From: Sandaracinaceae bacterium
GTDB lineage: Bacteria; Myxococcota_A; Polyangia; Polyangiales; Sandaracinaceae
Length of the DNA: 24,000 bases
Assembly (NCBI GenBank): GCA_044373065.1
Contig: JBILQT010000066.1
Location: 4,836-28,835, forward strand
Reading direction: 5' to 3'
The notes under the pieces were generated by a model. It was not told the DNA's origin. It worked only from the letters and a program-made list of their open reading frames with translations, and searched no databases. Made by a program: the position numbers and the translations under genes. Position 1 is the first letter of the stretch. Each line of letters begins with the position of its first letter. Below are positions 5,454-24,000 of this stretch, piece by piece.

Positions 5454-5723
5454 CCCACGAGCCCGTGGTTTGCAAAACGAGGGGAGGAAAGGGCAACCAC
5501 GAGCTCGTGGTTGGGAGAACGAGACGAAGAAAGCGAATCCACGAGGCCGTGGGTGCGCTTTCCTCTGCCGGGATCGCCAACCACGAACTCGTGGGCGGCG
5601 CTTTGTGTGCTGGAATTCCGAACCACGAGGCCGTGGTTGGACAAACCTTGCCTCCTTGTGCCAACCACGAGGTCGTGGGCCGCGTTTGGAGCGGGCGTTG
5701 GCACAACCACGAGGTCGTGGGTC
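5454..5723. repeat. array 1: seven inverted-repeat units (consensus AACCACGA-N3-CGTGGTT) at an exact 42-bp period
   Basis: The invariant core CCACGA...CGTGG starts at 5455, 5497, 5539, 5581, 5623, 5665 and 5707, so all six intervals are exactly 42 bp. The unit at 5494-5513 is a perfect 20-bp palindrome (CAACCACGAGCTCGTGGTTG). The ~24-bp spacers are diverged. Non-coding by phase-GC count; see findings. Confidence 0.85.
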
Positions 5724-5740
5724 CGCGAAACCCTAGGCGC

Positions 5741-7786: not shown

Positions 7787-7956
7787 CAGTATCTCCCGTT
7801 GGATTGGTTCATTTTGCAGTTCAACAGAGTCGCTCTTTCGGCACGCAAGATTTTGGTTTCAGCGCGAGCGCGCCCGCAGGGACCGATAGTCGTGCACTCC
7901 CAGCCACAGGGAGGGACCGAGGACGTAAGCCGCGATCAAACCAAAAGATAAGTGCC

Positions 7957-10878: not shown

Positions 10879-11925
10879 ATGGAAGACGCGAAGGACTTTG
10901 CAGCACGCGCGAACGTGAGCCTCGAAGCCGTCCAACTCTTGCGCGCGAGTGAGGTTATCGACCTGCACTTGGAGACGTACATCCCGCCGCGTCTCTGGGG
11001 CTACGACCTTCACAAGGACCACCTCGGGCGCTTCCCCTGGGGCTACTTTTTCGGGCACCTCGATCTGCCCCGCGTGCACTCGGGTGGGCTCACCGGTGCG
11101 ATGTGGTCGATCGCGACGAACATCACGCGCTCGGGCCCAAAGCGGCCAAGCATCGCGAAGGCGAACGTCGAAGGCTTGCAGGCGGCGCTGCGACAAGACC
11201 CGCGCGTTTCGGTGGTGCGCAATCGAAGTGAGTACGACGCGGCGCGCAGGGAAGGGCGTCATGCAGCGCTCATCACGATTCAAGGTGGCAACGCTTTCGA
11301 AGACGGCTTCGTCGATGCGAGCGGTGTCATCACGCGCGTGACCGTCGTGCATCTGAGCAACTCCACCTTCGGCGACACCTCGAGCCCCGCGCGTTTGGGC
11401 AAGGCGCGCGGGCTCACAGATCTTGGCCGCGCATACATTCGAGCGCTCAATCAGGGGCGAGTGTTCGTCGACCTCGCACATGCCAGCGAGCAGACCTTCT
11501 GGGACGCGCTCGAGGTGCACGACCGCACGCAGCCACCCATCGTCACGCACACCTGCATGCGCTCGGTGAACGACATGTGGCGGAACATCACCGACAAGCA
11601 GGCGAAGGCAATTGCAGACCTCGGCGGTGTCGTGGGCGTGATGTTTCATCGCGGCTTTCTGGGTCGTAGGCACGACGGAAAACCAACCGACGGAAGGCAC
11701 GTGATCACGCACCTTGAGGCCATCCTCCGTGCAGGCGGCGAGCATGCGGCCGCGCTCGGAAGCGACTACGACGGCTTCATCGTCCCGCCCTCCGATTTGC
11801 TCGATGGCGGCGTCGCATTCGCGCGTCTGGTTCAGTACATGCTCGATGCGAAGTGGACGACCGAGCGCATTCAAAACGTGCTCGGCCAGAACTTCCTTCG
11901 CTCGTTCGCAGCGCTGCGGCCGTAG
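10879..11925 (+). CDS. membrane (renal-type) dipeptidase, peptidase family M19
   Basis: 348-aa ORF, ATG 10879. The ordered motif series matches M19: VIDLHLETY (metal His-x-Asp/Glu region), ITIQGGNAFE, VTVVHLSNSTFGD, FVDLAHAS, PIVTHTC, GGVVGVMF and LGSDYDGF. Confidence 0.85.
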   Translation: MEDAKDFAARANVSLEAVQLLRASEVIDLHLETYIPPRLWGYDLHKDHLGRFPWGYFFGHLDLPRVHSGGLTGAMWSIATNITRSGPKRPSIAKANVEGLQAALRQDPRVSVVRNRSEYDAARREGRHAALITIQGGNAFEDGFVDASGVITRVTVVHLSNSTFGDTSSPARLGKARGLTDLGRAYIRALNQGRVFVDLAHASEQTFWDALEVHDRTQPPIVTHTCMRSVNDMWRNITDKQAKAIADLGGVVGVMFHRGFLGRRHDGKPTDGRHVITHLEAILRAGGEHAAALGSDYDGFIVPPSDLLDGGVAFARLVQYMLDAKWTTERIQNVLGQNFLRSFAALRP

Positions 11926-11928
11926 CGC

Positions 11929-12591
11929 CTACGCGCCTCGCTCGAGGCGAGACCGAACGATGCCAAGCGCCTTGGTGTGGATGCGGCTTGCCCATGACTT
12001 CGAGATGCCGAGGTCTTTGGCGATGTCATCCAGCACGCGGCCTTCAAAGTAGAACTCGCGCACGACCTTCAACTCGCGCTCGGGAAGCTCAAGCAGCGCC
12101 TCGCGCACACGCTTCGACTCCACGGCGCGGATCAGTTGATCGTCCGGCTTCTCCACTTCCGCTTCTTCCGCGCTGACAGCCTCGATGACGTAGCTCGCCG
12201 TCAACCTACCGAGCACATCGTCGATGGCTTGGACGGTGGCGTCGATGTCTGCCTTCGCGCTCGCCGTTGCAGCACGATCTTCGGCTGCCTGCTCAAGCAC
12301 GGCATCGGCCGCCTCCGCGAGCTTGCGGGCTTGGTGTGCGCGCCGCGGCAGGTAGGCCATCTTGCGGATGCTGTCGATGCAAGCGCCACGCACACGGTAG
12401 TAGGCGAACGTTGTGAAGAGGACGCCGCGCGTTGGATCAAAGCGCCCCTTCGCCTCCATGAGGCCCAAATAGCCAGCGCTGATGAGGTCTTCGAGATCGC
12501 AGTTCAGGTCCATCTCGGAGCGCACGCGGAGCGCAACGTTACGTACGAGGCCCTGATGTTCGCGAACGAAGTCGTCATCGGCATGCGCCAT
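11929..12591 (-). CDS. RNA polymerase sigma factor, sigma-70 family group 3 (FliA/WhiG/SigB-like)
   Basis: ORF 11929..12600 begins with GTG at 12600. I use the ATG at 12591 (MAHADDDF...), and either start is possible. Region 2 is LVRNVALRV...DLEDLISAGYLGLMEAKGRFDPTRGVLFTTFAYYRVRGACIDSIRK. The region 4.2 HTH is LDDIAKDLGISKSWASRIHTKAL. The stop is only 3 nt from the stop of the convergent dipeptidase gene. Confidence 0.85.
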   Translation of the reverse strand: MAHADDDFVREHQGLVRNVALRVRSEMDLNCDLEDLISAGYLGLMEAKGRFDPTRGVLFTTFAYYRVRGACIDSIRKMAYLPRRAHQARKLAEAADAVLEQAAEDRAATASAKADIDATVQAIDDVLGRLTASYVIEAVSAEEAEVEKPDDQLIRAVESKRVREALLELPERELKVVREFYFEGRVLDDIAKDLGISKSWASRIHTKALGIVRSRLERGA

Positions 12592-12664
12592 GGGAAGCAC
12601 TAGACATTGCCGTCGCGTTCGCCGTCAAGGTTGCGATTCACCTGGGAACGGCGCGTTTCAACGG

Positions 12665-12693
12665 TTGACGCAGCGCGGCGGCTTCTCGATGAT
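12665..12693 (+). promoter_or_regulatory. possible sigma-70-type promoter for lysC (TTGACG-N17-GATGAT)
   Basis: TTGACG at 12665-12670, a 17-nt spacer, then GATGAT at 12688-12693. The homology-supported GTG start at 12703 would then lie about 3 nt from the predicted TSS, giving a near-leaderless transcript. The -10 element is weak, so this is tentative. Confidence 0.3.
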
Positions 12694-12702
12694 GCGGGCC
12701 GC

Positions 12703-13911
12703 GTGAGCTTCATCGTTCAAAAATTTGGTGGCACGAGCGTCGGTACCCCGGAGCGCATTCGTGCGGTTGCGGAGCGCGTCAAGCGCACGCGTGAGGCGGG
12801 CCACGATGTTGTGCTCGTCGCGAGTGCCATGTCCGGCGAGACAAATCGCCTGATTGCGCTCGGTCAACAGTTCTCAGCGCGCCCTGATCCGCGTGAGATG
12901 GATGCACTCGTCGCGACGGGCGAGCAAGTGAGCGTCGCGCTCCTCTCGATTGCGCTGAACGAGATCGGCGTCCCCGCGACGAGCTTTCTCGCGCATCAAG
13001 TTCGCCTCCGCACCGACTCCGCATTCACCAAGGCGCGCATTCGGGGCATCGATGCGGATCGCCTGATCGAGACGGTCAAGCAAGGCCGCGTGGCGATTGT
13101 CGCCGGCTTCCAAGGCATCGACGACGACGGCAACACAACGACGCTCGGTCGCGGTGGCTCCGACACGACGGCCGTCGCGATCGCCGCTGCGCTCGGCCAA
13201 GGCGTTCCGTGTGAAATCTACACAGACGTCGACGGCGTCTACACGGCCGACCCGAATGTCTGCCGCAACGCGCGGAAGGTCTCGCGCATTAGCTACGAAG
13301 AGATGCTTGAGCTCGCTTCGCTTGGCGCGAAGGTGCTGCAGATTCGCTCGGTGGAGCTCGCCATGAAGTACGCCGTGCCTGTGCACGTGCGAACCAGTTT
13401 TTCGGACGCAGAAGGGACGTGGGTCGTGAACGAAGAAGAGTCGCTTGAGTCGGTCGTGGTTGCAGGTGTGACGTCCGACAAGAACGAGGCGAAGGTCACG
13501 ATTCATCGCATCGAGAACAAGCCCGGACGTGCCGCGGCACTCTTCGAAGCACTCGCGGAGGCCCGCATCTCCGTCGACATGATCATCCAGAACCCGTCGC
13601 ACGACGGCTTCACGGACATGACGTTCACGGTCGCCAAAGGTGACCTCCTCCCCGCGCGCGAGATCGCGGCGAAGGTCTTCACCACCAACGAACTCTTCGT
13701 GCGCGAGGACGTCGTGAAGGTCTCGATCGTCGGCCTCGGCATGCGCTCGCATGCGGGCGTCGCCGCGAAGATGTTCGGGCTGCTTGCGGCCGAGGGGATC
13801 AACATCGAGGCGATCACCACAAGCGAGATCAAGGTCAGCTGCCTCGTGCAGGCGAAATACCACGAGCTTGCAGTGCGGGCGCTCCACGACGGCTTCGGCC
13901 TCGGTACCTGA
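12703..13911 (+). CDS. lysC: aspartate kinase
   Basis: ORF 12607..13911 starts at the first TTG after a stop. Aspartokinases begin M-x-x-IVQKFGGTSV, which matches a GTG at 12703 (V/M-SFIVQKFGGTSVGTPERI). It has VVLVASAMSGETNRLI, GFQGIDDDGNTTTLGRGGSDTTA and two C-terminal ACT-like repeats. Trimmed length is 402 aa, typical for monofunctional LysC. Confidence 0.92.
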   Translation: MSFIVQKFGGTSVGTPERIRAVAERVKRTREAGHDVVLVASAMSGETNRLIALGQQFSARPDPREMDALVATGEQVSVALLSIALNEIGVPATSFLAHQVRLRTDSAFTKARIRGIDADRLIETVKQGRVAIVAGFQGIDDDGNTTTLGRGGSDTTAVAIAAALGQGVPCEIYTDVDGVYTADPNVCRNARKVSRISYEEMLELASLGAKVLQIRSVELAMKYAVPVHVRTSFSDAEGTWVVNEEESLESVVVAGVTSDKNEAKVTIHRIENKPGRAAALFEALAEARISVDMIIQNPSHDGFTDMTFTVAKGDLLPAREIAAKVFTTNELFVREDVVKVSIVGLGMRSHAGVAAKMFGLLAAEGINIEAITTSEIKVSCLVQAKYHELAVRALHDGFGLGT

Positions 13912-13939
13912 TCGACGAATCGTTCCCTGAGAACGCAAC

Positions 13940-13979
13940 AGAGGTGCGCAGGACGCGATGAACGCGTGTGCGCACCTCT
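13940..13979 (+). terminator. long hairpin 29 nt after the lysC stop (11-bp outer stem plus 5-bp inner stem); probable lysC terminator/attenuator
   Basis: AGAGGTGCGCA (13940-13950) pairs with TGCGCACCTCT (13969-13979). Inside, ACGCG-atgaa-CGCGT forms a second stem across a 2x1 internal loop. TTCGC follows the hairpin. The 3' arm contains the only plausible start codon (GTG 13968) of the next gene. Confidence 0.5.
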
Positions 13980-14354
13980 TCGCATGTCCCCACCGCTCCG
14001 ATTGCAGCGATCGGCGTCTTGATCGCCGCACTGGCGATAGCCTCGCTCGCTCGCGTGCGGCCTCCCGAAGCGCCGCCGGAGAGGGTGCATGCAACGGGTG
14101 AGCGCGCACCCGCCTGTGTGAACATCAACCGCGCGAACTCGGAGGAGCTTGAGACCTTGCCGCGTGTCGGGCCCAGCCTTGCCGCTCGGATTCTTGCGGA
14201 TCGCGAGGCCCACGGTGCCTTTCCCGATCTGGACTCCCTCGACCGCGTGCGCGGCATTGGGCCCGCCACGCTGCGGGTACTTCGCCCCCATCTCTGTGAG
14301 CTTCGCGTGTCAACGCGCGCGGACGCCTTGCCCGATGCGGGCCCGCCGCGTTAA
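13968..14354 (+). CDS. comEA: ComEA-like helix-hairpin-helix DNA-binding protein with N-terminal membrane anchor
   Basis: 128-aa ORF with a GTG start at 13968. An in-frame TGA at 13959 excludes longer forms. The TM anchor is PIAAIGVLIAALAIASLA. VNINRANSEELETLPRVGPSLAARILADREAHGAFPDLDSLDRVRGIGPATLRVL is the canonical ComEA tandem HhH module. Confidence 0.75.
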   Translation: MRTSSHVPTAPIAAIGVLIAALAIASLARVRPPEAPPERVHATGERAPACVNINRANSEELETLPRVGPSLAARILADREAHGAFPDLDSLDRVRGIGPATLRVLRPHLCELRVSTRADALPDAGPPR

Positions 14355-14384
14355 ACGATCGCTTTCCCTTTCCGAGGAGTTCGC

Positions 14385-15389
14385 ATGCGTCGTTTGTCCA
14401 TTGGCTTGATGGTTTGTGTCGGTGGTTGGGCCATTGCCGGCTGTCCCCCGTCCACACGTACCGACGCAGGCGTCGGAATTGATGCCAACCTTGGAACGAC
14501 GGACGCGAACGTTCCGCGCAATGACGCTTTCGTGGCAGCCTGCGCGACGATGGGCCCCGAGGACACGGCAACGGCCTGTGCTGACGGTTGCAACAACGAC
14601 GGCGACGGCTTCGCGGATTGCGATGACTTCGATTGCTGCGACGTCGTCACCTGCGGCCCCGCGACGGGCTGTGGCCGCCGCACGATGAATGACGCTGGTG
14701 TTCGCGCCGACGCGTTCGTTCCGGCCTGCGCAACGACGGGCCCTGAGGACACCGCGACGGCATGCGCCGACGGCTGCAACAACGATGGCGACGCCTTCGC
14801 CGACTGCAACGACTTCGACTGCTGTGACGTCGTTACCTGCGGTGCGGACACGGGCTGCGGACGTCGTGCGATGCGCGATGCCGGCCCACGCGCCGACGCG
14901 GCTGTGATGGCCTGCGCGGTCACGGGCCCTGAGAACACCGCGGGTGCCTGTGGCGATGCCTGCGACAACGACGGCGACGGCTTCTTTGATTGCGGCGATT
15001 TCGATTGCTGCCGCGTCATCTCGGGCTGCGGCCCGACGACGGCATGCGGACGCGATGCTGGCACGAGCACCCGCGATGCAGGCCCGAGTACCCGCTGTGA
15101 TGCAGGCGCTGGCGCTGCTGCCGAAATGGGCATGGCCGCTTGCACGGACGGCATCGACAACGACTGCGATGGCTTCACCGATTGCCGCGACTTCGGCTGC
15201 AACCGCGATGCGCCCACGCCGCGTGACTACTGCGTCACGACGCCGGAGAACACGCTCGCAGCCTGCTCCGACACAATGGACAACGACCTGAACGGCTTCA
15301 TCGACTGCAACGATCGCAACTGCTGCGGCATCCGCACCGTCGCGTCGTGCGAGGCGGGTTCGTACATCGCTCGCGGCAGCTGCCCCTGA
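14385..15389 (+). CDS. Cys/Asp-rich repeat lipoprotein with five DxDxDG-type (MopE-like putative metal/Ca-binding) modules
   Basis: 334-aa ORF, ATG 14385 with GAGGAG 5 nt upstream, lipobox GGWAIAGC. There are five copies of C-x-DG-x-(N/D)NDGDGF-x-DC-x-DFDCC, for example CADGCNNDGDGFADCDDFDCC and CTDGIDNDCDGFTDCRDFGC. DNDGDGFADCDD fits an EF-hand/Excalibur-like DxDxDG loop. The gene starts 30 nt after comEA-like. Confidence 0.8.
   Translation: MRRLSIGLMVCVGGWAIAGCPPSTRTDAGVGIDANLGTTDANVPRNDAFVAACATMGPEDTATACADGCNNDGDGFADCDDFDCCDVVTCGPATGCGRRTMNDAGVRADAFVPACATTGPEDTATACADGCNNDGDAFADCNDFDCCDVVTCGADTGCGRRAMRDAGPRADAAVMACAVTGPENTAGACGDACDNDGDGFFDCGDFDCCRVISGCGPTTACGRDAGTSTRDAGPSTRCDAGAGAAAEMGMAACTDGIDNDCDGFTDCRDFGCNRDAPTPRDYCVTTPENTLAACSDTMDNDLNGFIDCNDRNCCGIRTVASCEAGSYIARGSCP
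14520..15059 (+). repeat. intragenic tandem repeat: three ~186-189-bp (62-63 aa) modules; two degenerate modules follow to ~15386
   Basis: ACATMGPEDTATACADGCNNDGDGFADCDDFDCCDVVTCGPATGCGRR, ACATTGPEDTATACADGCNNDGDAFADCNDFDCCDVVTCGADTGCGRR and ACAVTGPENTAGACGDACDNDGDGFFDCGDFDCCRVISGCGPTTACGR. The module Cys positions recur at 63- and 62-aa offsets. Confidence 0.75.
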
Positions 15390-16111: not shown

Positions 16112-17317
16112 ATGTCCAGCAACGACGAAACGAATCGCGACCCCAACCTTGATGACGACGCACGCAGTGATGCGGGTGACGCGAGCGACGAAGGCGAGAC
16201 CTCTGAGAAGACGTCCCAGAGCCCTGAGAGCGAGTCGGAGTCGAGCAGCAGTGACGAGAGTGCTTCGACATCGGGCGCGCCGAGCGGGCGTCCCATGTCC
16301 GCAGGCGCCCGTCTGGCAGCGCAGAAGGCCGCCAAGGCCGTGCTCAAGGCGCAGAAGAAGGAAGAGCGCAAGGCCGCAGGGACGCCTGAGCCCACCGACG
16401 AGGTTCCCGAGGAACTCGACGAGACTGCCGAAGCAGCCCCGGAAGTGGAGCCGCTGGAGCAGACAGACCTGGGTCGCGCGACCTTGCGTGCGGGTGATTG
16501 GTGGGCCGCGAACTCCCAGCTTGCGATCGGCGCCCTGGTCGCAGTTGGCGTGGGCCTCGCTGGCTACCTTGGTTACCGCGCGTTCAACGAGAGCAAGGCG
16601 GCTGCTGCAGGCACGTTGCTCGAAGGGGCCGTCGAAGCTGCGAACGCGCCCGTCGTCGAAGCCGACGAGACCACGCCGGACTCAGAGGAAGAAGACCGCC
16701 TTACCTTCGCAACCGCAGCGGCGCGCGACGAGGCGGCCCTCGCAGCCTACCAACGCGTGATCTCCGAACACGGCGACACGGATGCAGCCGCATTCGCGCG
16801 CTTGGGTGCGGCGCGTGCCCTGGTGTCACTCGGTCGCGCGGAAGAAGCTCGGCCGCTCTACCAGGCGGCCGCAGATCACGGCGGCGAGAACGGCATCATC
16901 GGGTTCCAGGCACTTGAGGGAATCGGCGCCATTCAGGAGGGCGCAAACGACCTCGCGGGCGCACAGGCCACCTACGAGCAGTTGGGTCAGCTCTCTGAGC
17001 ACCGCTTTGAGTCGGTGTCGAAGTACCACCTGGCGCGCCTTCAGATTGCGCGCGGCGAAGAGGACGAGGCGCGGACCGCGCTGCGTGAGCTTGTGGCGGC
17101 ACTTCGCAGTGAAGATGCGGATGCACCCGAGCCCGAGTTCCCCTACGTCCTTGCACAGGCTGAGATGCGACTCCGCGAGCTTGATCCGAGCACGGCAGCA
17201 GCAGCGCCTTCGTTCGGCGGCGGTGGCGCTGGGGCTGAGATGGACCCGCAGATTCAAGAGATGATTCGCCGTATGCAGGCGGAAGCGGCTGCGGGCGGCG
17301 CTGGCGGCGGCGAATGA
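16112..17317 (+). CDS. YfgM-like (UPF0070/TPR_21-type) single-pass membrane TPR protein with a long acidic N-terminal tail
   Basis: ORF 16052..17317 trimmed to ATG 16112 (MSSNDETN...). A ~130-aa Asp/Glu/Ser-rich low-complexity tail is followed by a TM helix (WWAANSQLAIGALVAVGVGLAGYLGY). The periplasmic TPR-like region (AAFARLGAARALVSLGRAEEARPLY...KYHLARLQIARGEEDEA) is typical of YfgM. It lies immediately upstream of a BamB-like gene, as in the E. coli yfgM-bamB arrangement. Confidence 0.65.
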   Translation: MSSNDETNRDPNLDDDARSDAGDASDEGETSEKTSQSPESESESSSSDESASTSGAPSGRPMSAGARLAAQKAAKAVLKAQKKEERKAAGTPEPTDEVPEELDETAEAAPEVEPLEQTDLGRATLRAGDWWAANSQLAIGALVAVGVGLAGYLGYRAFNESKAAAAGTLLEGAVEAANAPVVEADETTPDSEEEDRLTFATAAARDEAALAAYQRVISEHGDTDAAAFARLGAARALVSLGRAEEARPLYQAAADHGGENGIIGFQALEGIGAIQEGANDLAGAQATYEQLGQLSEHRFESVSKYHLARLQIARGEEDEARTALRELVAALRSEDADAPEPEFPYVLAQAEMRLRELDPSTAAAAPSFGGGGAGAEMDPQIQEMIRRMQAEAAAGGAGGGE

Positions 17318-18528
17318 TCCCAGCGAGCAACCTGATGCGCGGCCTAAGCGGGGCTTGCCTCGCCGGCGTCACGTTGCTCGCAAGCGCTTGCTCCGGGGCG
17401 TTTCCGGCCATCGCAAGCTACTCGGACAGGATGGACCGGATCACGGGTGATTCGGGCATGGGGCGTTTCTCGCTCCGCTGGTCACGACGCCTTGGGGCGG
17501 ACCTGGCCCTGAACGAGTTGATGTCGGGCGTGACGGTCCCGGTCGAGCGCGCGGTTCCGACGCTGGATTCACTGCACGACCGCATCTTCGTGGGTTCGAG
17601 CACGGGCCAGTTGTGGTGCTTCACGGGCTCAGGATTGCGGCTCTGGATGTATCAGGCCGGCGGTGGAATTGGCGCTCCGCCAAGCCTCAGTCTCGACCGC
17701 CGGACGATCTACGTCGGCAGCGATGACGGCTTTCTCCATGCGCTCGACGCGACCTCCGGCCGCCTGCTCTGGCGCGGGGAGATGCTTGGCTCGCTCGGCA
17801 AGTCGCCGGTCGTCACCGAGGACGCTGTCTACATCGTGACCGACAACGATGTGGTGGGCGCCTACGACCGAAGCACGGGCGATGCGCTCTGGCGCTTTGA
17901 ACGCCAAGCCCCCGAGGGCTTCTACGTCACCGACCACGCAGGTCTTGTGCTTGCCGACCGTCGCCTCATCACGGGCTTTACGGACGGCGCCGTCGTCGCG
18001 CTCGACCCAAGTGATGGCCGCGTGCTCTGGGTTCGCGACACCACCGCCGACATGGACACGCACTCCGACGAGCTGCGCTTCACCGATGTCGATACGACCC
18101 CCGTTGTGCTTGGCGAGAGCGTCTACGTCGCCTCGTTCGCGGGTGGCCTCTACGCCCTTGAGGCGGCGAGCGGGAGCGTGCGCTGGGTGCGCCCCGAGTG
18201 GACGGGCGTGGTTGCGTTGGCTGACGCCGGAGGAGGCCGTTTGGCGCTCGCATCGGGCGACTTCGGGATTCAATCGGTCCGCATGGACAACGGCGACAGG
18301 CTTTGGAGCACGCCCGTCCGGCGCGGGGCTCCCACGAGCATCAGCATCGTTGGCGACAGCATCGTCTACGGCGAGACCACGGGCGGGCTTGTGACGCTCA
18401 CCTCGCTCGGTCGCGAGATCTCGCGCTATGAGGATGGCCACGGTTTCGCGGCACCGATCGCCATCGAAGCAGGCCTCGCAGCGGTCGTCTCGAACGCCGG
18501 CACGCTTCTCGTCTTCGCGGTGCGCTAG
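17314..18528 (+). CDS. bamB: outer membrane protein assembly factor BamB-like lipoprotein (PQQ-like beta-propeller)
   Basis: 404-aa ORF. ATG 17314 overlaps the upstream stop (ATGA at 17314-17317); ATG 17335 is an alternative. The lipobox-like signal is GVTLLASACSG. It has repeated PQQ/BamB blade motifs (IFVGSSTGQLWCF, IYVGSDDGFLHALDATSGRLLWR, VYIVTDNDVVGAYDRSTGDALWRF, GAVVALDPSDGRVLWV, GGLYALEAASGSVRWV). Confidence 0.8.
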   Translation: MIPASNLMRGLSGACLAGVTLLASACSGAFPAIASYSDRMDRITGDSGMGRFSLRWSRRLGADLALNELMSGVTVPVERAVPTLDSLHDRIFVGSSTGQLWCFTGSGLRLWMYQAGGGIGAPPSLSLDRRTIYVGSDDGFLHALDATSGRLLWRGEMLGSLGKSPVVTEDAVYIVTDNDVVGAYDRSTGDALWRFERQAPEGFYVTDHAGLVLADRRLITGFTDGAVVALDPSDGRVLWVRDTTADMDTHSDELRFTDVDTTPVVLGESVYVASFAGGLYALEAASGSVRWVRPEWTGVVALADAGGGRLALASGDFGIQSVRMDNGDRLWSTPVRRGAPTSISIVGDSIVYGETTGGLVTLTSLGREISRYEDGHGFAAPIAIEAGLAAVVSNAGTLLVFAVR

Positions 18529-18534
18529 CCCAAA

Positions 18535-18555
18535 CGGGCTGGGAGAACCAGCCCG
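18535..18555. terminator. 8-bp-stem hairpin between convergent bamB-like and TPR genes (weak terminator candidate)
   Basis: CGGGCTGG (18535-18542), loop GAGAA, CCAGCCCG (18548-18555). On the minus strand it is followed by TTTGGG, and there is no U-tract on the plus strand. Confidence 0.3.
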
Positions 18556-18583
18556 CGAAGGTCGTGGCGAAGCAGGCCGCCGC

Positions 18584-19591
18584 TCAGTTTGGGCGTTCGT
18601 CCAAGAGCGGGACGCTGCCGAAGAAGAGCTGGCGAATCTCCTCGGCGATGGCGCGCGCGACATCGTCCTTGCTGGGCATGCCCATGCGCTCGATGTTGCG
18701 GCGGTAGACGAAGATGCGTGAGGCCTTGGGCACTTCGCCCTCGGCCGAGAGCCCGTCGAGCAGCACGGGGATACGCGGGTCCACGCCCTCGGCCACGACC
18801 TCTGCACCTGGCACGTCGCTCACGATGACAAATGCGCCGTCGATGATGGGGCCGAACTCTTCTGGCACGCTCTGCATCGCATCACGAATGATCGCCTCAA
18901 AGTCTTCTTGCGACATCGTGCTCGCCGGATAGCCCTGCTTGAGCTCGGCATCACGCGCGTGAAGGAAGGCGACGGCCATCCCCGCCAAGTCTTTGCGGCT
19001 CTCACGACAGAGCCCGATGTAGTAGTGGGCATCGGCAAGGAGGGGCTCAACCTTGATCGCACGCTCCAAGAAGGGCTCGGCGAGCGTTGGGTTTCCGAGT
19101 TCGAACCAGGCGCGGCCCAGTGCGGCATCAATGCCGGCGTTCTCGGGGAGCTTCTTCGGCACACGCTTCAGCACGGCCTCCGCGCCCGCTTTGTCTCCCT
19201 TGCCCAAGTAGCCATCGAACTTGAGCAGAAGTGCATCCGCAAGCTCGGTCTCGTCCTCGATCCACTCGAGCGCGCTGTCGATCATCGCAATCGCGGCATC
19301 CCAATCGTGCAGCGGATGCAGCAGGACTTCGCTGGCATTCAGCATGGCTTCGACGAAGCTCTCATCGAGGTCGATCGCCTGCTTGTAGTGCTCGATCGCC
19401 TTCTCAGCGTTGCCCGAGGCGGCATGCACATAACCGAGCAGGTTCTGAACTTCGGGGGATTCGCGATCGAGTTCAGCAGCTTTCTCGGCCGAACGGAGCG
19501 CCCCCTCCGCGTCGCCTGCAGACATGCGATCCCAGGCCCGATCAATGTGGGCGCTGAGCTGATTCATCGGGTTCTTTTCTCGGCTTGCCAT
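18584..19591 (-). CDS. TPR-repeat protein with C-terminal zincin-like (DUF1025/Zincin_1-type) domain lacking the HExxH histidines
   Basis: ORF 18584..19852 trimmed to ATG 19591 (MASREKNPMNQ...), with AGGAAG ~12 nt upstream; ATG 19567 is an alternative. TPR-like helices include AEGALRSAEKAAELD, NLLGYVHAASGNAEKAIEHYKQAIDLD and LGRAWFELGNPTLAEPFLERAIKVEP. The C-terminal FEAIIRDAMQSVPEEFGPIIDGAFVIVSDVP...RIFVYRRNIER...AIAEEIRQLFFG resembles the DUF1025 layout. The upstream part of the long ORF is the repeat array and a promoter-like region. Confidence 0.72.
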   Translation of the reverse strand: MASREKNPMNQLSAHIDRAWDRMSAGDAEGALRSAEKAAELDRESPEVQNLLGYVHAASGNAEKAIEHYKQAIDLDESFVEAMLNASEVLLHPLHDWDAAIAMIDSALEWIEDETELADALLLKFDGYLGKGDKAGAEAVLKRVPKKLPENAGIDAALGRAWFELGNPTLAEPFLERAIKVEPLLADAHYYIGLCRESRKDLAGMAVAFLHARDAELKQGYPASTMSQEDFEAIIRDAMQSVPEEFGPIIDGAFVIVSDVPGAEVVAEGVDPRIPVLLDGLSAEGEVPKASRIFVYRRNIERMGMPSKDDVARAIAEEIRQLFFGSVPLLDERPN

Positions 19592-19620
19592 CGTGTGCGC
19601 TGCTTCCTGAAGGGGGCGGC

Positions 19621-19648
19621 AAGGTACGTGCGCGGGAGGGTGCGTCAA
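19621..19648 (-). promoter_or_regulatory. sigma-70-type promoter candidate for the TPR gene (TTGACG-N16-TACCTT on the minus strand)
   Basis: On the minus strand, TTGACG is the complement of 19643-19648, followed by a 16-nt spacer and TACCTT (complement of 19621-19626). It lies ~30 nt upstream of ATG 19591, with AGGAAG in between. Array 2 lies directly upstream of it. Confidence 0.4.
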
Positions 19649-19730
19649 GCGATTTGCCGCTGTTCGGGACGTTCCCGGGGCTTTCAGGCTCGCTTCAGCC
19701 TCAACACAGGGAGCCACCCCCTTTTCCAGG

Positions 19731-19924
19731 CGACAAACCACCTCGAAGCCAGGGAAGGCCTGCCCCGGAAGTGGTTTGCGTTGCCGAAAACGCAGGGCCT
19801 GCCCGATGCAGAAGTGGTTTGCGTTGCCTCGAACGCGGGCACTGCCTGACACCAGATGGTTTGGGTGGCCTTGGAGTCAGGGGATGGCCGATGCACGGGT
19901 GGTTTGGCGGTTGGCAGCCCCGCC
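19731..19924. repeat. array 2: GTGGTTTG-core units at 43/42/43-bp spacing plus one inverted copy
   Basis: TGGTTTG starts at 19772, 19815, 19857 and 19900. The first two units share an identical 18-mer, GAAGTGGTTTGCGTTGCC. An inverted core, CAAACCAC, is at 19734-19741. Units 1 and 2 each carry a small hairpin (TGCGTT-gccgaa-AACGCA and GCGTT-gcctcg-AACGC). Confidence 0.7.
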
Positions 19925-19939
19925 GACGTGAGGGGGCGA

Positions 19940-20650
19940 TCAGCGCATGCCTGGCGGACGCTCGCGGTCCATCTCCGCACTCTCGGCGCGGGTCGGAGCG
20001 TTGGTTTGCCGCTCAGGGAAGTTCTGTTCCGATTGCGGTGCGGCCGGGCGAATCGTCGCGGTGCCGTCTTCGGAGCGACGTGCGGGGGGCTGCACGGGCG
20101 CAAGGTCGGCCGGTCGGTAGTGGCCTGCGCTGAAGTCGATGTAGGTGAAGCTGAACGTGCCCTCGCTGCCGTTCGAGATCTGCGGGGCGACCTGCGCGCG
20201 CATCATCATCACGAGCACCATGTCGTTGCCGCGACGCTCGAAGCGCGCACGCACCACAGGGGTTTCGAAGAACTGCGTCTCAAGCCAGCGGCCGCTGTTC
20301 GAGAGGTGAATCGCCGTGTTCGGAAAGAGCACTTCGACGCGCCCATCGGACTCGCTCACCGTCGTTGCAACCGCGGCGGTCGTCTGCACAAAGAAGCGCG
20401 AGCCGCCCGAGGAAGTCATCTGGAAGCCGGGCCACGTCACGATGGACGTTGGCGCGGGGCGACGGCCACGGCGACGCGATGCAATCCGGTTCGCAGCAGG
20501 AGGCGGGTTCGCGCGACCGGGAGCAACACCACCGTACTCGGTGAGGTTGTGCGGCGTCCCAGCAGGACGCACTTCCTGGGCTGCGGTGGGCAGGGTGCCC
20601 AGGCTCGCGAGCCCAAGCGAGAAGACGATGGCGGTGAGTTCTTTGCGCAC
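19940..20650 (-). CDS. secreted hypothetical protein, possible AMIN-like beta domain, Pro/Arg-rich termini
   Basis: ORF 19940..20686 starts with TTG. A GTG at 20650 gives a clean signal peptide, (M)RKELTAIVFSLGLASLGTLPTAAQE. The central region VTWPGFQMTSSGGSRFFVQTTAAVATTVSESDGRVEVLFPNTAIHLSN...VVRARFERRGNDMVLVMMMR resembles AMIN-type domains. That comparison is from memory. The start is uncertain by 36 nt. Confidence 0.55.
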   Translation of the reverse strand: MRKELTAIVFSLGLASLGTLPTAAQEVRPAGTPHNLTEYGGVAPGRANPPPAANRIASRRRGRRPAPTSIVTWPGFQMTSSGGSRFFVQTTAAVATTVSESDGRVEVLFPNTAIHLSNSGRWLETQFFETPVVRARFERRGNDMVLVMMMRAQVAPQISNGSEGTFSFTYIDFSAGHYRPADLAPVQPPARRSEDGTATIRPAAPQSEQNFPERQTNAPTRAESAEMDRERPPGMR

Positions 20651-20741
20651 GAGGCGATGGTAGGCGAGAGGCCACGCGCTCCGCAAAGTGTTGGCAAGTT
20701 TCGGCTGGGTTCATGCGCGCATCGCGCACACTGGGCGACGC

Positions 20742-21899
20742 GTGAGCTCATCCAACGTCCATCTCTACAAGGCATCCGACTACGCAAACATCGCGTGGCC
20801 AAAGGCAGAGGATGCGCAGCGCGCACGCGCCTACCTCGAGCCGATCCTCCGCCAAGGGACGCGCTTTGTGGCGCCCAATCTCTCGGCGGAGCTCTTCATT
20901 GCCATCGCCGGTGAGCATGTCGTGCCCTGCACGCGCTCGCTTGAGCAACCCGCACAGAGCTACATCGTCTCGCCCTTCACGCACTACATCACCTACGGCG
21001 CCGAGGAGATCAGCAAGCTCAAGAACCCGGCGCTGGAGGCGCCACTGCGCGGCATCGTGACGGCACTCGGTGGCGTGTTGCAGCGCGCGCACTTTGATCG
21101 CGTGGTCTACGTCGACAACTGGCTCACCTCGACAAGCCTTCATCCGAGCTTCACCGAGAGCGAGCTCAAGGCGCTCATTCATGCGCTCGTCCAGGCCCAT
21201 CCTGATTGCGCGATTGTGCTGCGCTCGGTCGATGTGCGGACGGGGAGGGCGCTCGATGCGCAAGTGCGCGCGCTCGGTGCGCGGCTGGTCTTTAGCCGTC
21301 GCGTGCTCTTTCAAGACCCAAAGCAGGCGCAGCACCGGCGCGACCACCGGAAGGACAAAGCGCTGCTGAATGCAGCGCTCGCATCAGGCGCCTACCGTGT
21401 GCTTGATGCGCGGACGCTCGACCCCGAAGGCATGCGGCGCATCACCGAGCTCTACGATTTGCTCTACGTGGGCAAGTGGTCGCAGCACAACCCCAAGCTC
21501 ACCGTCGCGTACGTCACGCATGCGCTCGCCTGCGGCTTTTTGGAGGGCCAGGTGCTCGTCTCTAGGTCGGGATCGATCGACGGAGTCTTCGCCGCGTGGA
21601 CGCGCAACGGCCTCTACTACGTGCCGCTTCTTGGCTACGACACGCACCTGCCGCAGTCGCTCGGGCTCTATCGGATGCTCGCAGCACTCTCGACCGAGGA
21701 TGCGCTTGAGCGCGGTGTGCTCGTGCATGACAGCGCAGGCGTCTCCGACTTCAAACAGAACCGCGGCGCGGTGCCGGTGGTGGAGCATTCAGCCGTGTTT
21801 GACGGGCATTTGCCGCTTGCTCGACGTGCGCCTTGGGCCTTGCTCGCTGCGTTGATGTCGAAGGTGGGCGTGCCTCTGATCGAGCACTACGACCTCTGA
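20742..21899 (+). CDS. GNAT-fold acyltransferase of the FemAB/CelD/BioF2-like (Acetyltransf_6) type
   Basis: ORF 20688..21899 (GTG). I prefer the GTG at 20742 (MSSSNVHLYK...), which leaves a ~90-nt divergent promoter region, but the start is uncertain. The C-terminal ...LYDLLYVGKW...GFLEGQVLVSRSGSIDGVFAAWTRNGLYYVPLLGYD...LGLYRMLAALSTEDALERGVLVHDSAGVSDFKQNRGAVP matches the pattern of CelD/FemAB-like GNATs (...G..va......g..y....G.d......g.y........A...G...fD.g.g...yK...Ga.p). Confidence 0.6.
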   Translation: MSSSNVHLYKASDYANIAWPKAEDAQRARAYLEPILRQGTRFVAPNLSAELFIAIAGEHVVPCTRSLEQPAQSYIVSPFTHYITYGAEEISKLKNPALEAPLRGIVTALGGVLQRAHFDRVVYVDNWLTSTSLHPSFTESELKALIHALVQAHPDCAIVLRSVDVRTGRALDAQVRALGARLVFSRRVLFQDPKQAQHRRDHRKDKALLNAALASGAYRVLDARTLDPEGMRRITELYDLLYVGKWSQHNPKLTVAYVTHALACGFLEGQVLVSRSGSIDGVFAAWTRNGLYYVPLLGYDTHLPQSLGLYRMLAALSTEDALERGVLVHDSAGVSDFKQNRGAVPVVEHSAVFDGHLPLARRAPWALLAALMSKVGVPLIEHYDL

Positions 21900-21907
21900 T
21901 CGCGTCG

Positions 21908-22846
21908 TCAGTTGAGCAGCGTCCGAACGAGCAAGAGCGCGTCGATCGTCTCGGTCTCGGAGAGCCGCAGAGACACGTGCACATGCGCGCCTTCGCTCCG
22001 TGCCTCGGTCTGCATCAGCGCGGGTCGCAGCGCGCTTCGCATGAACTCCTCCCGCGCACGCCACGCCTCAAGCTGGTGCGCGATGTCGCTCGCAAGGGAA
22101 CGCGCGTCGTCTTCATTGGGCATCGCGAGCGAGGCCTCTGCATCGACGCCGTGTTCGAGCGAGATGCCGATCGCAATGTGCTCTGGACGATGCGCATCGC
22201 CACGCGGTCGCTGGCCAAAGAACGAACGCCAATCCTCTGGAAGCGTGCCGACGACGCGAACATCGCGACGCGTCTGAAGGCCCTCCCAGAGTGGGCGCCA
22301 AGCGGCATCTGCACTCGCAGTTTCACCCGCGAGTTGACGCAGTGATGAAGCCACCGCTGTGGCAGGCCCCGTCATCACGCCGTGCTCACCCAGTGGTGCC
22401 GCGACGCTTGTCCCCTGGTCGCTCGCAAGCGCAGGCGTGCCTTCAATCTCGGTCTCGTGCAGCGCGGAGCCCATGCCTTCGTTCGCGCGTGCGACGCATT
22501 GCGTGAGCTCCTCTAGCGCGAACGTACCGTGCGCACTCGCGACGACCTCTGCGAGCTGCCCGGCATCGTTGAGGAGCAAGTACCCGCGCACGCGCTGGAT
22601 GGCATCGATCGAAGCGCCGCAGTCCTCCCGAAGGCGACGAAGCGCTGCGCTGTCGGAGGCCGCGCGCGCGATCCAAGGAGCGCGCTTCAACGCCTCGATG
22701 TTCACCTCGACGACGAACGCGGTGCGCGTCGGTGCGAGCCCGAGTGCATCGGGCTCCTCGCGATGGAGTTGCGTGAGCCCGAACGTCCCAAGCGCCACGA
22801 TGGCGGCGAGCGCGAGAAGGAACGCGAGGCTTCGAGTTGGGCGCAT
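21908..22846 (-). CDS. hypothetical membrane-anchored protein
   Basis: 312-aa ORF, ATG 22846. The N-terminal anchor is MRPTRSLAFLLALAAIVALGTFGL. The start is 6 nt after the DUF58 gene stop, so it is likely the same operon. No family recognised, and it is not a vWA/BatA-type sequence. Confidence 0.65.
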   Translation of the reverse strand: MRPTRSLAFLLALAAIVALGTFGLTQLHREEPDALGLAPTRTAFVVEVNIEALKRAPWIARAASDSAALRRLREDCGASIDAIQRVRGYLLLNDAGQLAEVVASAHGTFALEELTQCVARANEGMGSALHETEIEGTPALASDQGTSVAAPLGEHGVMTGPATAVASSLRQLAGETASADAAWRPLWEGLQTRRDVRVVGTLPEDWRSFFGQRPRGDAHRPEHIAIGISLEHGVDAEASLAMPNEDDARSLASDIAHQLEAWRAREEFMRSALRPALMQTEARSEGAHVHVSLRLSETETIDALLLVRTLLN

Positions 22847-22851
22847 GGAGC

Positions 22852-24000
22852 CTAGAGAAGGTTGCGCGCTTTGATCTCGAGGTAGCGATTCACCGTGTCG
22901 ACCGCGAGGCTTCCGACTGGTGCCTCCACAAGCCCAACACCGCTGCGCCGAAGATGCGCTTTCACGTTGTCGCGATCGTTCAAGAGGTCTGCCGCGGCCG
23001 CACGTTCGTAGGCCTGCTCGCGCGACGAAACGGGGGATGCCGCAAGGCGTTCTGCAATCGCGTCTTGCATCGTAACGCAGACGGGAAGGTGCTTGTTGCG
23101 GATGCCCGCGAGGTGCTCGGCCAATGGCAGTGCATGCGTGTCATCCAGCAGATCCGAGAACATCACAACGAGCGAGCGACGTGGCACGCGGATGCGGAGG
23201 AACTCCACGAAGCGTCGAAAGTCGACGTAGGAAGAGTTCGCCTTCACGGCGTAGAGGGCTTCGAGAAGCACGCGGTATTGCCCGGGCCCGCGGTTGGCTG
23301 GCACGAACTTGTGCACGTCCTCCGCGAAGAGGATGAGCCCGACGCGGTCTCCATGACGCAGCGCGACCCAGGCGAGCAGGAGCGCAGCGCGAATCGTGTG
23401 GTCGAGCTTCGTCGTCGCCGTGTCACCTTCCGTCAGACGAATCGCCATCAGGCGGCCCACATCGAGCGCGAGCAGCACGGTCTGGCTTCGCTCGTCGCGC
23501 ATCACGCGCGTCACCGGCCGCAGTCGCTTGGCGCTCGACTTCCAATCGAGGTCGCGAAATGCATCGCCCTGTACGTACTCACGCAGTTGGTCGAATTCAC
23601 CACCGCCACCGCTTCGACGCACATTGCGAAAGCCGATGCTGCGCAGGTCGCCAAGGCGTGACGCGAGGTCCTGGCCGCCTGCGCCAAGCACATTCGGGTA
23701 GACGCGCACGTTGCGCTCGGAAGCGATGGTCAGGAGGCGTGCACCCAAGCCGAAGATGCCGTCGGTGCGCACGTGAAGGTCTCCGAAAACGTGATCGCCG
23801 CGCTCATGCGGGATGACCTCGTAGTGGGCCTCACGTCGCGCGAACGCGGGCACGATCACGCTCACTTCATCGGGTACGGCGCGCCATCCCGCAGGGATGT
23901 CATCGCGGATCGTGAGACGCAGCGCGCTCGACGAGGGATTGTGAATCTGCAGCGTGACGCGGTTCTTCACGCCGACGGTCATGCGCCCGTCGAAGCTCCT
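22852..24000 (-). CDS. DUF58 domain protein (MoxR-associated, vWA-like fold), 5' end outside the window
   Basis: The track ORF is 22852..23982, but the frame stays open to 24000 (RSFDGR upstream of the listed Met), so the gene is probably N-terminally truncated by the window edge. The hallmark DUF58 core is GEFDQLREYVQGDAFRDLDWKSSAKRLRPVTRVMRDERSQTVLLALDVG, followed by the vWA-like LILFAEDV...SLVVMFSDLLD. Confidence 0.85.
   Translation of the reverse strand, partial: RSFDGRMTVGVKNRVTLQIHNPSSSALRLTIRDDIPAGWRAVPDEVSVIVPAFARREAHYEVIPHERGDHVFGDLHVRTDGIFGLGARLLTIASERNVRVYPNVLGAGGQDLASRLGDLRSIGFRNVRRSGGGGEFDQLREYVQGDAFRDLDWKSSAKRLRPVTRVMRDERSQTVLLALDVGRLMAIRLTEGDTATTKLDHTIRAALLLAWVALRHGDRVGLILFAEDVHKFVPANRGPGQYRVLLEALYAVKANSSYVDFRRFVEFLRIRVPRRSLVVMFSDLLDDTHALPLAEHLAGIRNKHLPVCVTMQDAIAERLAASPVSSREQAYERAAAADLLNDRDNVKAHLRRSGVGLVEAPVGSLAVDTVNRYLEIKARNLL

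Follow-up and report, generated by a model that had tools for sequence, protein, structure and literature searches.

A strain-variable, lineage-specific array of 42–43-bp units upstream of a conserved promoter candidate in a Sandaracinaceae bacterium

Genomic setting of array 2

The 24,000-nucleotide stretch of DNA analysed here (the window) has a GC content of ~65% and is chromosomal, and the homologues of its flanking proteins are named Sandaracinaceae or Sandaracinus. The neighbouring genes are of the housekeeping kind and include those for aspartate kinase, phosphoglucomutase, UppP, a BamB-like protein and MoxR/DUF58. Beyond the left end, the genes yidC, yidD and rnpA lie 8–14 kb from window position 1 (L149, positions 11719–14694), and the window is therefore probably origin-proximal. 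A short repeat array, here called array 2, occupies the interval between two co-directional minus-strand genes, as had been described in the original prediction. The features of the locus are as follows.

18584..19591, minus strand: gene for a TPR-repeat protein of 335 aa, downstream of array 2; start codon at 19591
19621..19648, minus strand: candidate sigma-70-type promoter of the TPR gene; −35 element TTGACG at 19648–19643, 16-nt spacer, −10 element TACCTT at 19626–19621
19734..19753, minus strand: inverted partial unit copy; its core reads CAAACCAC on the plus strand, and it forms one arm of an inverted repeat whose partner is 19759–19778
19754..19796, plus strand: unit 1; core 19772–19778, 18-mer GAAGTGGTTTGCGTTGCC at 19768–19785
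19797..19838, plus strand: unit 2; core 19815–19821, 18-mer GAAGTGGTTTGCGTTGCC at 19811–19828
19839..19881, plus strand: unit 3; core 19857–19863, preceded by A and not G
19882..19906, plus strand: end of the third spacer and terminal fourth core, 19900–19906
19940..20650, minus strand: gene for a hypothetical protein, 236 aa as called, with no family match; stop codon 19940–19942

The stop codon of the upstream gene is 33 bp from the last core and the inverted copy is ~140 bp from the TPR start codon, with non-repeat DNA separating array 2 from both genes. No gene was called across array 2 in any of five independent assemblies, and no open reading frame with a coding GC3 signature runs over it. 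Together with periods of 43, 42 and 43 bp, these results uphold the non-coding nature first proposed for the array. No gene for a DNA-binding protein adjoins it.

The TTGACG-N16-TACCTT promoter candidate was left uncalled by a consensus promoter scan because its −10 element matches at only 3/6 positions. In two relatives that encode TPR orthologs of 90% protein identity (L006 and L007), TTGACG-N16-TACC(T/C)T is kept at an equal distance to the start codon, and this conserved spacing supports the candidate that had been proposed. No sigma-54 promoter was seen near array 2 on inspection by eye only. The direct cores lie ~125–260 bp upstream of the −35 element and the inverted core 85 bp upstream, which is far for a simple sigma-70 activator.

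Anatomy of the array

The heptamer TGGTTTG starts on the plus strand at 19772, 19815, 19857 and 19900, so that successive starts are 43, 42 and 43 bp apart, and occurs on the minus strand at 19734–19740, within the plus-strand sequence CAAACCAC (19734–19741). These positions and spacings reproduce the phased copies and inverted copy originally reported, and the 18-mer said to be common to units 1 and 2 was likewise found in both. The window as a whole contains nine copies of TGGTTTG against 1.16 expected (sd 1.13; maximum of 4 in 100 shuffles), five of which are packed into the 173 bp of the array 2 region. The clustering of cores is far beyond chance. A high background frequency of the motif had been named as grounds for abandoning the array; the background is low and chance is therefore excluded.

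A repeat search recovered direct units of 42–43 bp across 19750–19906 and an inverted pair of 20 nt, 75% complementary, at 19734–19753 and 19759–19778. Autocorrelation across 19725–19930 reached 0.485 at a lag of 43 and 0.372 at a lag of 42, over a background of ~0.26. Tandem Repeats Finder (TRF) did not call array 2, even at a score of 30, because the units are less than 70% alike. When the register is set as core plus following spacer, array 2 has three periods that are homologous to one another, a fourth core that closes the array, and one partial copy in inverted orientation. Spacer lengths are 36, 35 and 36 nt, with a mutual identity of 54–66%, and past the fourth core (19907–19939) there is no homology to the other units. 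The core consensus is (G/A)TGGTTTG, which reads CAAACCA(C) in the direction of the TPR gene. Hairpins within the units are only 5–6 bp and occupy non-equivalent positions from one unit to another, that of unit 1 being a small TGCGTT/AACGCA stem at 19777–19794.

One further TGGTTTG is found at 20002–20008, in the 3’ part of the upstream gene and 102 bp away from the final core of array 2. The flanks of this copy are similar to those of unit 4 (GTTGGTTTGCCGCT vs GGTGGTTTGGCGGT) and its phase differs from that of the array; the likeness is probably coincidence.

Copy-number variation and age of the array

An identical TPR protein is encoded on five metagenome contigs, four of which span the intergenic region. 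The four-core allele is present in the window and in 3–4 other contigs, with an identical intergenic region. A three-unit allele, which is based on one assembled contig (L001), is without exactly 43 bp, corresponding to the interval between the two 18-mers and thus to the loss of unit 1 or unit 2. L001 and the window are otherwise 99.75–100% identical over 9.7 kb. The loss of 43 bp in such a background indicates that copy number changes faster than point mutations accumulate, and collapse of the assembly across 18 nt of identity seems an unlikely cause of the L001 allele. Because the carrier strains are near-clonal around array 2, comparison among strains gives no independent evidence of purifying selection. 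The strain sequence L002 is identical to the window over 17187–21500, and all but ~7 of its 124 mismatches fall in 21500–24000, a pattern that looks like a tract of between-strain recombination.

Array 2 is absent from the TPR locus of both 90% relatives, in which a divergent M74 peptidase gene lies directly upstream of the TPR gene. The intergenic region in L006 is 185 bp, and in L007 the M74 start codon is ~65 bp from the −35 element. The array is also absent from 70% relatives, whose synteny is as in L006 and L007. On the other side, a clean hairpin-plus-T terminator and a convergent gene come after the 84% ortholog of the upstream gene in L144, again with no array 2, and a 62% ortholog is followed by an H+-PPase gene. 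Given the differing neighbours and the lack of an array in relatives, array 2 is lineage-specific and sits on the junction of two synteny blocks. By the same comparison, it is young.

Constraint on the core and candidate precursor sites

Within the three spacers, 15/36 columns are invariant, yet all four direct cores (4/4) are intact. An invariant block of seven columns that extends to a fourth copy has p ~0.003 after correction for register, and a column-permutation test in a different register gave p = 0.0015. The core is selectively conserved, in excess over the spacers.

A 15-nt matrix built from the four array 2 units was used to search for precursors of the core upstream of the orthologous promoters. 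In L007, CGTCAAACCATCCGA is present in the 69 bp upstream of the conserved −35 element in the same orientation, with a score of 10.5 bits and a region-corrected p = 0.002, which becomes ~0.02, a borderline value, after correction for 8 tests. The same 69-bp region holds a weaker site, GCAAATACCACCTCC, and L006 carries a core-like site, GGAGATACCACTTCC, with a region-corrected p = 0.056. With this matrix no core-like site was found in the 70% relatives. Local alignments of whole units to the upstream region of the relatives gave p = 0.06–0.08, so that derivation of the entire unit is not significant. There is a hint here that the amplified segment may have carried a pre-existing promoter-upstream element. 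In L007 (1523–1572) the stop codon of the 90% TPR ortholog is directly followed by an 18-bp tandem repeat of 2.8 copies with the unit TCGACGCTGCGCTTCGCA.

A possible amplified binding site

Array 2 is a genuine minisatellite, non-coding and lineage-specific, that varies among strains and lies upstream of a conserved promoter. An origin by tandem duplication, through slippage or unequal recombination, is well supported. In the reading tentatively preferred here, array 2 would be a tandemly amplified, helix-phased, putative protein-binding site that acts on the TPR promoter. A segment of ~43 bp upstream of this promoter was duplicated head-to-tail, by slipped-strand mispairing or by unequal recombination between short direct repeats; the outcome is three periods, a final core and a partial copy in inverted orientation, and near-identical strains still gain or lose units. 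The core of 7–8 nt has been kept constant while the remainder of each unit drifted. Multiplication of the putative core site may in this way have produced a phased landing pad through which the TPR promoter, 85–260 bp downstream, is modulated. Since a recurrence of 42–43 bp approximates four helical turns, all cores would face the same side of the helix. The excess conservation of the core and the borderline precursor motif are the reasons for reading the core as a binding site; that a protein binds it, and that transcription responds, would follow if this reading is right. The absence of array 2 from the nearest relatives implies that any role it has is dispensable at this locus.

Nearly as likely is a neutral minisatellite with the same slippage or recombination origin and without function, in which the 7-mer would be the microhomology of the first duplication and the survival of the cores a matter of luck or local gene conversion. 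In its favour, copy number outpaces point mutation in array 2. Three periods with a terminal core are also the product expected from duplication between two short direct repeats. The neutral account is favoured further by the lineage-specific location at a synteny breakpoint, with nothing at the orthologous sites of relatives at 84–90%, and by unrelated intergenic arrays of 40–43 bp in related genomes (43 bp in L144, 40 bp in L008–L010). It is less comfortable with the cores themselves, as 0/28 core positions changed against ~40% divergence in the spacers is unlikely under neutrality (p ~0.003). Head-to-tail slippage also leaves the extra inverted core unexplained, and in the 90% relatives the orthologous promoter is preceded by core-like sites.

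If the core is a binding site, array 2 represents a regulatory site multiplied by tandem duplication, with a dose that varies among co-existing strains. This would be a simple natural route to the tuning of one promoter in an uncultured myxobacterium. On present evidence, it is a fairly ordinary strain-variable minisatellite.

Relationship to the palindromic array 1

The window contains another intergenic array, array 1 (5455–5740), which consists of seven 42-bp units, each with the palindrome CAACCACGAGnnCGTGGTTG, a palindrome of 20 bp. By palindrome coordinates its period is 42 with no 43-bp step. The segments between the palindromes take two forms that are mutual reverse complements, and units are therefore present in both orientations, as in BIMEs. 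Relatives of array 1 were found in metagenome Ga0105045, in L141 (1140–1415; 72% identical over 276 nt) and in L138 (4090–4340), with flanking genes unrelated to those of the window. Array 1 is absent from the orthologous site of 74% and 68% relatives (L168 and L169). Array 1 is a member of a dispersed palindromic repeat family with core CAACCACGAGnnCGTGGTTG and a 42-bp period, located at non-orthologous loci. The metagenome scan used the array-1 double palindrome as query and did not retrieve the window’s own contig; it is therefore silent on other loci in this organism.

A common origin of the two arrays had been suggested on the basis of a shared core and flank. Array 2 would in that case be a decayed offshoot of the array-1 family that lost the left half-site and kept the right half, GTGGTT(T/G)G, with the function of a REP/BIME-like family of 42-bp period, such as 3’-end RNA stabilisation or service as the target of a mobilising enzyme. 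The arrays do have in common a 7–9-mer, a period of ~42 bp and a position after a stop codon. Their periods are similar (42 vs 42–43 bp) and they share GTGGTT, each begins ~15–33 bp past the stop codon of a co-directional gene, and neither occurs at the orthologous sites of relatives. Array-1 unit 1 (CGTGGTTTGC) is identical over 9 nt to array 2 units 1 and 2. The flank string cited in the original prediction is present in array 1, at 5465–5484, one base off the position given for it. The array-1 family is dispersed, with members at other loci in L141 and L138, and decay of half-sites is seen in the terminal units of those arrays.

Direct comparison of the two arrays was nevertheless negative or weak throughout, and a common origin is not borne out. 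In nhmmer searches the array-1 profile matched array 2 only at E = 78 and out of register, the array-2 profile found nothing in array 1 at E ≤ 100, and the latter also found nothing in L138 or L141. The best Smith–Waterman score between the arrays was 18, from the 9-mer GTGGTTTGC, and lies under the shuffle mean (20.3 ± 2.6). With a 13-nt half-site matrix built from 19 array-1-family units, array 2 cores scored 2–8 bits and several coding sites scored higher, the best coding match in the window reaching 15 bits; the most informative positions of the matrix (CTCG) are missing in array 2. The sequence CCACGAGNNCGTGG had no match in 19700–19950 with up to two mismatches. Of the features that define the array-1 family, array 2 has the 42-bp period and lacks both a CAACCACGAGnnCGTGGTTG palindrome per unit and homology of the units. 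Descent of array 2 from the array-1 family is accordingly unlikely, and a distant relationship, though possible, is unproven and similarly doubtful. The tempting link between the arrays is removed as unsupported, and any definition of the palindromic array-1 family should leave array 2 out.

An RNA-level element, with array 2 in the 3’ UTR of the upstream gene or in a long TPR leader and its four CAAACCAC and one GUGGUUUG copies pairing alternatively or binding an RNA-binding protein, is very improbable: the two co-directional genes are not separated by any terminator-like site and, in the minimum-free-energy fold, a 12-bp stem joins the inverted copy to a direct one, but the fold has z = −0.5 on the transcribed strand (56/200 shuffles fold equally well or better), there is no Rfam match, the unit hairpins are at non-equivalent positions, and the conserved promoter lies downstream of array 2, so that the TPR leader excludes it.

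Comparison with known repeat systems

Array 2 was compared with the described classes of bacterial repeat. CRISPR arrays have near-identical repeats of at least 23 nt, unrelated spacers and cas genes. The units of array 2 all have just 7 nt in common, its ‘spacers’ are 54–66% identical to one another and the window has no cas genes, and a CRISPR identity was rejected. A structured RNA, terminator or tRNA was rejected as well (fold z = −0.5 as RNA and −0.24 as DNA, no terminator-like site, no tRNA). Rfam 15 gave nothing at 19700–19950, and its sole match in the window, to a miRNA model at E = 0.99, was at chance level and fell inside array 1.

Intergenic VNTRs or minisatellites of bacteria, for example mycobacterial MIRUs, resemble array 2 in their head-to-tail units of tens of bp between co-directional genes, and in the difference of copy number between very close strains (3 vs 4 units). 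Array 2 thus shows both marks of a minisatellite or VNTR, namely head-to-tail non-coding units and a strain difference in copy number, the latter seen in one contig. In MIRU-type VNTRs the units contain short ORFs that run at their ends into the stop and start codons of the genes on either side, and a single unit family recurs at many loci. Array 2 differs in that it has no small ORFs over its neighbours’ codons, its periods (43/42/43) are not divisible by 3, a search of ~34 kb of the same genome revealed no second locus, and a short core is kept while the rest of the unit drifts. Assignment to the MIRU type was rejected on the periods, the gap to both genes and the missing second locus.

Reiterated upstream activator or operator sites and iterons consist of a short conserved core that recurs in phase with the helix ahead of a promoter. 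Array 2 has the short core, the helical phase and the location upstream of a promoter; it departs from this class in its lack of conservation in relatives and in its long promoter distances.

REP/BIME elements contain an imperfect palindrome of 20–40 nt per unit, occur in tens to hundreds of dispersed copies and are associated with a RAYT transposase. They are extragenic, and their palindrome is marked at one end by a GTAG or CGTC tag (PMC3733652). Array 2 is similar in that it is extragenic, lies just past a stop codon, is tandem with flanking DNA and allows a small hairpin to be drawn for each unit. It differs from REP/BIME elements in having no conserved palindrome, no fixed GTAG/CGTC tag and no dispersed copies found in the window, L149, L001 or related loci. 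Membership was rejected given hairpins of only 5–6 bp, the same fold z values and the absence of a fixed tag. Array 1 fits REP/BIME well, with its 20-bp palindrome, both unit orientations and dispersal.

The sopC centromere of the F plasmid is composed of 12 direct 43-bp repeats, in each of which SopB binds a 16-bp inverted repeat (PMC3177203). Array 2 shares with sopC a period of 43 bp, one short motif of the protein-binding type per period and direct orientation; it differs in its chromosomal, housekeeping context and in units that have no inverted repeat. No canonical parS is present in the window or L149. A partition site or iteron array was rejected, as nearby ParA, ParB and Rep genes, a canonical parS and any plasmid or phage match are all missing.

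Searches for further copies and a wider family

No copy of the array 2 unit was found elsewhere in the window, in L149 (8 kb past the left end), in L001 or in ~120 kb of related Sandaracinaceae loci. The 18-mer GAAGTGGTTTGCGTTGCC is absent from IMG/VR, and blastn against plasmids and phages gave no match. The original prediction was to fall either on a high chance frequency of the motif or on a lack of other phased instances and of conservation in relatives. Chance frequency leaves it standing, as described above; of the second kind of evidence, no other instance or conservation was found in the closest relatives or in ~34 kb of the same genome.

A scan of GTDB for three TGGTTTG at 42–43 bp returned more than 119 loci. 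Most of the matches listed are arrays of period 42, 21, 14 or 7 from other phyla. Genuine 42–43-bp TGGTTTG arrays were identified in six Myxococcota or ‘delta’ MAGs (L015, at 1553–1760, L097, L105, L115, L126 and L129), and among the matches listed, ~4–5 of ~14 with period 43 are from Myxococcota MAGs (L015, L105, L115, L129). In the MAG arrays TGGTTTG is often within or beside a hairpin, and L115 and L129 share CTTTAAGTGGTTTGAGTT. The flanks of the six arrays are no closer to the units of the window than are controls, and the unit profile detects none of them. As only the selected 7-mer is common, these arrays were rejected as an array 2 family, and the best reading is of unrelated arrays in which the 7-mer happens to occur.

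Two unselected intergenic arrays were observed in related genomes. In L144 (562–760; also L145, 891–1001) a 43-bp array with the near-palindromic core TAGTCCAATTGGG comprises 2.6 clean copies and degenerate ones, and lies upstream of the 84% ortholog of 19940–20650. A 40-bp array of four copies, 99% identical, is located between the amidohydrolase and HU genes of a 70% relative (L008 14082–14241, L009 14063–14222, L010 14082–14241), with the palindrome GCAAGCTTGC at the unit junction and an overlapping repeat of 111–130 bp. Three other related loci, 54 kb in all, showed no array of 40–43 bp.

Whether arrays of ~42–43 bp are general in Sandaracinaceae genomes is the more interesting question. 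It is quite unlikely that array 2 is one case of a habit common to the Myxococcota, in which intergenic arrays with a period fixed near 42–43 bp would each be built around a short core or palindrome, as a landing pad for architectural or regulatory DNA-binding proteins or as the product of dedicated amplification, with rapid turnover at synteny breakpoints. Such a reading is hinted at by the two arrays in the window, the L144 and L008–L010 arrays and the Myxococcota share of the period-43 matches, and is opposed by the 54 kb with none and by GTDB flanks no closer than controls. A full-text literature search returned no description of such arrays in myxobacteria.

Two other repeat features of the window were recorded. 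The intergenic region between the mannose-1-phosphate guanylyltransferase and phosphoglucomutase genes (7787–7956) is unusually AT-rich and holds inverted copies of TTTTGGTTT at 7852 and 7938, 86 bp apart. At 14523–14984 a coding tandem repeat of 186 bp, in 2.5 copies, is part of a secreted protein that matches the acidic double-disulfide repeat family NF033662.
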